619 nucleotides of DNA from a phage, in sequence record DQ006827.1, one strand, 5' to 3'. Positions 1-619 of the stretch are shown piece by piece. Both the position numbers and the translations under genes were made by a program. Below the pieces are notes generated by a model. The model made no database searches. It was not told the origin of the DNA and was given only the letters and a program-made list of their open reading frames with translations. Every line of letters starts with the position of its first letter. Within the stretch, counting starts at the first letter, position 1.

Positions 1-14
1 TTACTGGAGGCAAC
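1..14 (+). other. 3' end of the 5' untranslated leader of an ssRNA phage genome (partial; the 5'-terminal part of the leader lies outside the window)
   Basis: Sequence immediately upstream of the A2 start codon. Only 4 in-frame codons precede the ATG, so the leader identity depends on the start-codon call. Other frames stop at TAG 29-31 and TAA 64-66. Confidence 0.6.
6..10 (+). promoter_or_regulatory. Shine-Dalgarno ribosome-binding site for A2
   Basis: GGAGG at 6-10, followed by a 4-nt spacer (CAAC, 11-14) and ATG at 15-17. The spacer is slightly shorter than typical but workable. Qbeta has a purine-rich SD-like element a few nt upstream of its A2 start in the analogous position (from memory). 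Confidence 0.55.
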
Positions 15-619
15 ATGCCACGTTTACCTAGGGGACTTCGATTCGGAGCGAATATGGAGGTCTTAAACGACTTCCAGGAACTCTGGTATCCAGAGTCCCA
101 CATCGATTCCGATATGATCTTCCCTTTGTATACCTTCAAAGGTAACATGGGTGGTTCGTTTTTCGATTCCTACGGCACAAATAATATTGTCCGTCAGGTC
201 CGGAAGACGCCACACCGTGCTACAGTTCCTATAGCCTCTTCTGGCTTAAGGCCCTGTACCTCTGTATGGTATGACCCAACCAGCCTGCTTTTCAGAATTC
301 CTGAAATGAGGGCTGAGTGGGACAATGGCATGGGTGACACTGGAGATATTGTCTATAAAGACTTTCTCTTCAGTGCGCCGGCACCTAAGGAGTTCGATTT
401 CTCCAATTCCTTAGCGCCACGCTACAGTAATGCCTTTTCCGCCTTTAACGCCAAGTATGGCGTCATTATCGGAGAAGGGCACGAAACACTTAAGTATTTC
501 GCGCTATTACTTCGCAGACTACATAAAGCAGTCCGTGCCGTTCGGCACGGAGATTTACGTGGTCTCCGGAGGATCCTTGACTCTTACCATAAGGGTCATT
601 GGAAACCTGCTACTGCTGG
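15..619 (+). CDS. A2: Maturation protein A2 (maturation/lysis protein) of a Qbeta-like ssRNA phage; start codon present, 3' end truncated by the window edge (last complete codon 615-617, then GG of a Gly codon)
   Basis: Seen in sequence: the frame is open from position 3 to 617 with no stop, while the other two + frames and all three - frames carry multiple stops. Translation from ATG 15 is MPRLPRGLRFGANMEVLNDFQELWYPESHIDSDMIFPLYTFKGNMGGSFFDSYGTNNIVRQVRKTPHRATVPIASSGLRPCTSVWYDPTSLLFRIPEMRAEWDNGMGDTGDIVYKDFLFSAPAPKEFDFSNSLAPRYSNAFSAFNAKYGVIIGEGHETLKYFALLLRRLHKAVRAVRHGDLRGLRRILDSYHKGHWKPATA (201 aa). Established knowledge, from memory: Qbeta A2 begins MPKLPRGLRFGADNEILNDFQELW and contains RQVRRTPHRVTVPIASSGLRP, APKEFDFSNSLVPRY, AFSAFNAKYG, LLLRRL, GDLRALRR and KWKPATAG in the same order and spacing. 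Arg codon usage is mixed and includes AGG, AGA, CGG and CGA. Confidence 0.9.
   Translation, partial: MPRLPRGLRFGANMEVLNDFQELWYPESHIDSDMIFPLYTFKGNMGGSFFDSYGTNNIVRQVRKTPHRATVPIASSGLRPCTSVWYDPTSLLFRIPEMRAEWDNGMGDTGDIVYKDFLFSAPAPKEFDFSNSLAPRYSNAFSAFNAKYGVIIGEGHETLKYFALLLRRLHKAVRAVRHGDLRGLRRILDSYHKGHWKPATA
80..96 (+). other. Local RNA hairpin inside the A2 coding sequence (7-bp stem, 3-nt loop)
   Basis: ACTCTGG (80-86) is the exact reverse complement of CCAGAGT (90-96); the loop is TAT (87-89). The equivalent Qbeta segment, as I recall it, can form a similar but shorter stem with a UUU loop. Confidence 0.4.
532..551 (+). other. Local RNA hairpin inside the A2 coding sequence (8-bp perfect stem, 4-nt loop GUUC); not a transcription terminator
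   Basis: TCCGTGCC (532-539) is the exact reverse complement of GGCACGGA (544-551); the loop is GTTC (540-543). No U-tract follows, and an RNA phage genome has no rho-independent terminators. The homologous Qbeta segment (recalled) forms a 7-bp stem at the same codon positions, with two base pairs changed on both sides. Confidence 0.5.

Follow-up and report, generated by a model that had tools for sequence, protein, structure and literature searches.

The window, a stretch of 619 nucleotides (nt) of record DQ006827.1 that was analysed over its whole length, carries one long open reading frame (ORF) on the + strand with 201 codons and without a stop before the 3′ end. The encoded protein matches the Pfam family PF03863 (Phage_mat-A) with 276 bits at a cut-off of 25, with residues 32–201 lying on profile positions 16–215; it matches PHROG 4286 with E=7e-43, and the PDB chains of Qbeta A2 (5VLZ/5MNT) match it over all 201 residues with E=6e-79 to ~1e-78. 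The assignment of the protein to A2, made earlier in a sequence-only reading of the window, is borne out by these matches. The nearest relatives are M11 (AF052431) and MX1 (AF059242) of Qubevirus durum, which have the same gene at the same genome position. The nucleotide identity amounts to 93.4% with M11 and 89.8% with MX1, and Qbeta proper can be aligned to the DNA of the window only from ~nt 333 on; the amino acid identity is 94.5% with M11, 90.5% with MX1, ~62% with Qbeta, and ~40% with Qubevirus faecium. The window corresponds to nt 43–661 of the M11 genome—in which the A-protein coding sequence starts at 57 as the first gene, right after the 5′ UTR—and its Shine–Dalgarno (SD)-like GGAGG has a counterpart there at nt 48–52, shortly before that start. 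A complete maturation protein of this kind has about 420 residues, with an α-helical C-terminal region that binds RNA; the A2 proteins of the nearest relatives consist of 421 amino acids, and the window stops at codon 201. No phage record identical to the window was found among the records searched. These comparisons of sequence identify the window as the 5′ end of A2 from an M11-like Qubevirus durum. The RefSeq record NC_001890.1, titled ‘Escherichia phage Qbeta’, scores the same as MX1 (AF059242) in both searches and names A2 ‘head maturation protease’; in LC710219.1, the label ‘lysis protein A2’ sits on the coat-protein range.

A2, present in a single copy, is the maturation protein of phages of the Qbeta type and serves in binding of the F pilus, in entry of the RNA into the cell, and in lysis via inhibition of MurA. 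F-pilus binding and MurA inhibition are known for Qbeta only; for the M11-like phages, they are expected from homology and from the lack of a separate lysis gene. The maturation protein of MS2 (Emesvirus) has the Pfam family and the two-region architecture in common with A2 but is not the lysis protein of its phage, whereas A2 of Qbeta is both. That A2 has two functions and is less conserved in its N-terminal part is already established, as is the gene itself. The features of the window are collected in the following table.

Features of the 619-nt window, with positions counted from its first nucleotide
Feature	Position	Strand	Remark
SD-like GGAGG	6..10	+	4 nt 5′ of the A2 ATG; read from the sequence
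A2 maturation/lysis gene, 5′ portion, 201 codons	15..617	+	ATG at 15; ORF open at the 3′ end of the window
Upstream flank, residues 17–24 (LNDFQELW)	63..86	+	Identical in Qbeta
Block first half, residues 25–45	87..149	+	Changed side chains, scaffold kept
Block second half, residues 46–59	150..191	+	Loop-like, Gly/Ser/Asn-rich
Downstream flank, residues 60–80 (RQVRKTPHRATVPIASSGLRP)	192..254	+	19 of 21 residues as in Qbeta
Second variable segment, residues ~94–119	294..371	+	Seen in identity windows and entropy scan

The segment of interest, in the following the block, comprises residues 25–59 (nt 87–191) and reads YPESHIDSDMIFPLYTFKGNMGGSFFDSYGTNNIV in translation. The sequence-only reading had set this block apart as hypervariable between conserved flanks: its coordinates and sequence match the translation exactly, and the Qbeta counterpart given there is indeed that of residues 25–59 of the PDB chains 5vlz/5vm7/7lhd/5mnt. 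The conservation of both flanks is likewise confirmed. In the upstream flank, D19, F20, L23, and W24 are invariant in both Qubevirus species, and in the downstream flank, the genus shows no variation at T65, P66, T70, V71, P72, G77, R79, and P80. The block itself shows 10 identities and 5 conservative matches between window and Qbeta, with a BLOSUM62 global score of z=6.1 over shuffles. The claim that the two versions share almost nothing thus stands as far as only 10 of 35 residues are identical but is overstated, since the homology is in frame, the score lies well above shuffles, and a scaffold is kept. In the first half, this scaffold consists of P26, I30, S32, P37, Y39, T40, K42, and G43, of which neither P26 nor G43 varies across the genus and Y39 hardly does; in the second half, D51 and N56 are the only residues common to window and Qbeta. 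The block of the window features 7 aromatic residues compared with 4 in Qbeta and 13 Gly/Ser/Asn/Thr residues compared with 9, and it is without R44 and R53, which are both present in Qbeta. M11 already carries essentially the block of the window: 31 of 35 residues are identical, compared with 28 of 35 in MX1. Altogether, the window differs from M11 at 11 residues, 4 of them in the block (three within residues 25–45, the fourth being S52T), and from MX1 at 19 residues, 7 of them in the block and all seven at residues 29–45. The second variable segment contains an indel of one residue compared with Qbeta (FRIPEMRAEWD in the window versus FLL-NARVDWD in Qbeta). Residue 81 (nt 255–257 of the window) is Cys in M11-like A2 (RPCTSVW) and Val in Qbeta, Q. 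faecium, and the metagenomic relatives P0001 and P0002; it is Thr in P0003 and P0005 and again Cys in the distant metagenomic P0004.

Divergence is strongly localised to the block, as judged by an alignment of full-length A2 from 18 phage records together with the window. Between window and Qbeta, 10/35 residues are identical inside the block and 115/166 elsewhere (Fisher p=1.3e-5). Between M11 and Qbeta, residues 25–59 form the lowest of 387 windows of 35 residues, with 26% identity compared with 67.5% over the whole 421-residue protein, followed by residues 80–114, 356–390, and 227–261; upon permutation of the identity vector, an equally poor window arose in 1 of 20,000 trials. The block is among the two lowest nonoverlapping windows in all between-lineage pairs, but not within Qbeta proper (Qb-BR12), and residues ~94–119 form the second-lowest window in nearly every comparison. 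An entropy scan over eight lineage representatives, which was blind to the earlier coordinates, ranks residues 28–59 first, followed by ~94–119 and 366–375. Five further, metagenomic lineages, obtained by an exhaustive HMMER search (cluster representatives; 1.8 billion metagenomic proteins), show a block identity of 9–41% compared with 38–60% elsewhere. The multiple alignment proposed as a check on the variability of the block therefore agrees with it by three measures—identity windows, entropy scan, and metagenomic lineages—and within the sequences aligned here, residues 25–59 are the fastest-diverging segment of A2. A word-indexed search of 5.8 billion proteins gave zero matches to the A2 fragment, and Qubevirus proteins seem to be almost missing from that collection; scans of IMG/VR and JGI metagenomes yielded two usable contigs only.

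Within lineages, the block behaves differently from one to the next. Among eight strains of Qbeta proper, it changes at 0–2 of 35 positions, and these changes are only L50M/I and G58S; the dN/dS ratio is 0–0.09 in the block and 0.07–0.09 in the rest of the gene. In the M11-like phages, based on three sequences (M11, MX1, and the window), the ratio is 0.15–0.30 in the block and 0.08–0.11 in the rest, so that the block is two- to threefold less constrained than the rest of the gene; 9 of the 36 differences between M11 and MX1 fall inside it (p=0.001), with a dN/dS of 0.30 versus 0.10. In Q. faecium, the block reaches 0.32–0.89 compared with 0.11–0.18 in the rest and contains indels, the second half included. 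For every pair compared, dN/dS stays below 1. How far the block diverges hence depends on the lineage, from a frozen state in Qbeta proper via a moderate rise in the M11-like phages to near neutrality with indels in Q. faecium. The term hypervariable is apt between lineages but fails within Qbeta proper, where eight strains differ at no more than two positions and dN/dS is not above that of the rest. Among the differences fixed between the two Q. durum clades, replacements are overrepresented inside the block (OR 2.3, p=0.03), which does not hold for the polymorphism of the Qbeta clade (OR 0.8). The corresponding ratios of the block are a fixed Dn/Ds of 3.3 versus a Pn/Ps of 0.28, with the divergence ratio inflated by the saturation of synonymous sites from one clade to the other (pS 0.7–0.9). 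The McDonald–Kreitman-type contrast is significant in the block, and the remainder of the gene gives an equally significant one; owing to the saturation, the contrast between fixed and polymorphic changes is biased, and the replacement enrichment is therefore not read as proof of positive selection.

Polarisation by outgroups favours the state of the window 7 times, that of Qbeta 9 times, and neither 9 times; both lineages have therefore changed. The motif GGSF.DSY..N in the block of the window is also found in the metagenomic P0001 and partly in phage FI but is absent from Qbeta proper, and the LNAHLDDRLPN of Qbeta is unique to Qbeta proper. P0001 comprises 421 amino acids and is, outside the block, 59% identical to M11, 60% to Qbeta, and 57–58% to Q. 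faecium. It blends motifs of both species: TVPVNHLGYRPVTTV resembles Q. faecium, and FKG..GGSF.DSY resembles M11. Its protein sequence suggests that P0001 represents a Qubevirus lineage of intermediate position that has not been described before; P0002–P0005 are still more distant.

The N-terminal β-region of A2, residues 30–120, contacts MurA according to Cui et al. 2017 as quoted in two later papers (PMC12856241; PMC7354602), and the same two papers, again citing Cui 2017, place this β-region outside the capsid. Since the reported range spans residues 30–120, the variable segments 28–59 and ~94–119 would lie inside the external, MurA-contacting range; residues 25–29 of the block are outside the range as quoted. 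The exposure of the block is accordingly an inference from the literature with a second-hand range, and the suggestion of a surface-exposed, MurA-contacting block is supported from residue 30 on but not for its first five residues. A single-sequence AlphaFold2 prediction of the protein of the window had a pLDDT of 33.5 and gave an unusable model. Two substitutions reported from experiments fall into the block: A2 L54R emerged exclusively during coevolution with a host that was partly resistant and was tied to a shift in host specificity and virulence (PMC3150450), and E30D (E31 in the numbering used here) was present in thermally adapted lines (PMC7354602). L54R maps to the second half of the block and is the only direct hint at a function of the block.

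MS2 offers a second point of comparison. Its pilus contacts are V15, L31, L33, R36, F92, F94, and R99 of the β-region, plus H357 (PMC6635492), and these residue numbers lie near the three most variable segments of A2—by number alone, as the N-termini are unalignable. By hhalign, A2 aligns with the maturation proteins of MS2, fr, and GA only from A2 residue 146 on, which is consistent with the report that homology among maturation proteins resides mainly in the C-terminal α-region (PMC12856241). With profiles that align only from that residue on, the transfer of MS2 pilus-contact residues to A2 is impossible, and the positional resemblance of MS2 and A2 may serve as a lead only. In addition, the β-regions of MS2's maturation protein and of Qbeta's are reported to point in opposite ways (PMC13483237). 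The RNA of the window was considered besides the protein.

Window positions 1–300 fold with a minimum free energy of −113 kcal/mol, z=−6.6 versus shuffles. The maturation-gene start of these phages is closed by long-distance pairing; the start-codon region of the window, of M11, and of MX1 (nt 14–19) pairs with nt 268–273 at a mean pair probability of 0.78–0.91, which fits this known closure. In fragments of the Qbeta clade, the 5′ end, nt ~3–18, pairs with nt ~282–297 instead. Single-sequence folds of both clades feature two long irregular stems, 25–51/103–130 and 146–180/187–219, with the block as one arm; its partners are the conserved flanking codons of residues 4–13 and 59–68, and the register is shifted between the clades. 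Rfam contains no family matching the window, even at E≤1.

Several explanations compete for this pattern. One would attribute the amino acid changes to the RNA, as by-products of compensatory changes that keep the hairpins of the 5′ domain. Apart from a fold far beyond shuffles, it draws on an RNAalifold consensus that has 14 covarying pairs and 95.6% of the cells paired, looks good compared with controls, and contains two hairpins in the block that carry two-sided changes. In the hairpin 115–124/141–150, three covarying pairs would couple the replacements M34D/G46L, I35T/M45V, and F36H/N44R. The pair probability of this hairpin is ~0 in each individual sequence, however, the other one, at 170–190, is predicted in the Qbeta clade only, and nearly all of the covariation stems from one phylogenetic split of 3 versus 10 sequences. 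Individual folds pair the block with flanking coding sequence in shifted registers—the consensus fold missed the two long stems because the register differs between the clades—and the pattern at the protein level reaches Q. faecium and the metagenomic lineages. RNA covariation as the driver is thus largely refuted by the zero probability of the key hairpin per sequence and the clade-specific occurrence of the other, and the explanation is improbable. Still further down ranks the possibility of an artefact or mosaic, namely a frameshift with compensation, an insert recombined from another lineage, or an overlapping gene embedded in the segment, which is highly improbable. Nothing speaks for it positively; the block of P0001 shares 41% with M11 compared with 21% with Qbeta while its remainder is equidistant, which could hint at exchange. 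No indel separates window and Qbeta before residue ~96, though. The frameshift is rejected, since the in-frame block scores 45 and the two shifted frames reach 12 and 18, and so is the overlapping gene, since alternative ORFs in other frames are not conserved and have stops in MX1 and Qbeta; a recombinant insert finds no support, with a dS of 0.34–0.54 in the block of the M11-like phages that resembles the 0.24–0.45 of the rest.

The two explanations at the protein level carry more weight, yet each taken alone is rather unlikely, and about equally so. Pure tolerated drift would make the block a permissive surface loop without a role in binding, in which lineage differences are neutral. The dN/dS ratio, which is below 1 everywhere and near neutral in Q. 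faecium (0.86–0.89 for FI versus SP and FI versus HB-P22), fits this explanation, as do the indels in the block of that species, the Gly/Ser/Asn-rich second half in the window, and the same host ligands for all compared phages. The block of Qbeta proper, in contrast, is under no weaker constraint than the remaining gene, unlike a permissive loop; L54R was selected in coevolution in association with changed host specificity (PMC3150450); and the block lies inside the range that is quoted as contacting MurA. Episodic adaptive divergence would instead have a specificity block that was re-optimised on the stem of each lineage and afterwards fixed, with F-like pilus variants or else MurA binding and the timing of lysis as the target. 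It is favoured by the low polymorphism of Qbeta proper relative to divergence, by the excess of fixed replacements in the block over the rest of the gene, by the occurrence of L54R in coevolution lines only (PMC3150450), and by the pilus and MurA sites on the β-region, which are thought to be adjacent or overlapping (PMC12856241). Against it stand the synonymous saturation that inflates the divergence ratio gene-wide, the absence of a dN/dS above 1 from all comparisons, and the lack of any known difference in phenotype that sets M11-like phages apart from Qbeta, none having turned up in the papers examined; all compared phages, moreover, have the same receptor and presumed lysis target. A block that determines specificity, as the sequence-only reading had suggested, is not shown by these data: no ratio exceeds 1, and within Qbeta proper the block is held like the rest of the gene. 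We know of no ligand difference among the compared phages, all of which use the F pilus and presumably target E. coli MurA.

Tolerated drift and episodic tuning each account for part of the data. Pure drift is disfavoured because of the tight conservation in Qbeta proper and because of L54R, and a clear change of specificity is disfavoured because receptor and lysis target are shared and dN/dS is below 1 throughout. Probably, the block lies exposed to solvent at the periphery of the face that binds pilus and MurA, and its chemistry is re-set lineage by lineage; this re-setting may be adaptive tuning or tolerated drift. According to this preferred explanation, the block would belong to the N-terminal β-region (~30–120), which in the papers quoting Cui 2017 lies outside the capsid and makes most MurA contacts in Qbeta. 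The retained residues P26, I30, S32, P37, Y39, T40, K42, G43, D51, and N56 would hold a framework of strands and turns, and the other positions, chiefly those of residues 46–59, would be replaceable at a lineage split. Rather than varying continuously, the block exists in a version of its own in each lineage, kept by purifying selection with a hold that is tight in Qbeta proper, looser in the M11-like phages, and nearly absent in Q. faecium.

A bolder extension, which is doubtful, assumes that the M11-like phages address the same partners, F pilus and MurA, via a chemically different surface—aromatic, Gly/Ser-rich, and without R44/R53—and that the block is a swappable module. If this were true, the block would set the timing of lysis, the sensitivity to rat-type MurA resistance alleles, or the preference among F-like pili; the version in Qbeta proper would be derived and frozen, and the GGSF.DSY version (in the window, in P0001, and partly in FI) would be the older one. 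Suppressors of a murA rat allele in Qbeta, termed ‘por’, are reportedly N-terminal missense changes of A2 that raise its translation.

The block is nothing out of the ordinary for A2, a protein already known, and is to be expected for a receptor-binding protein. What is new is one M11-like allele and a quantified map of conservation; the understanding of A2 is unchanged. As a lone phage protein that inhibits MurA, the enzyme targeted by fosfomycin, A2 is a protein antibiotic; it is at the same time the protein with which a model RNA phage binds its receptor. A map of which residues of its exposed face can be rewritten and which are fixed may aid the engineering of A2-based MurA inhibitors and of pilus-targeting proteins, and the same map may help in reading host-range variation in the F-specific RNA coliphages that are used as faecal indicators.
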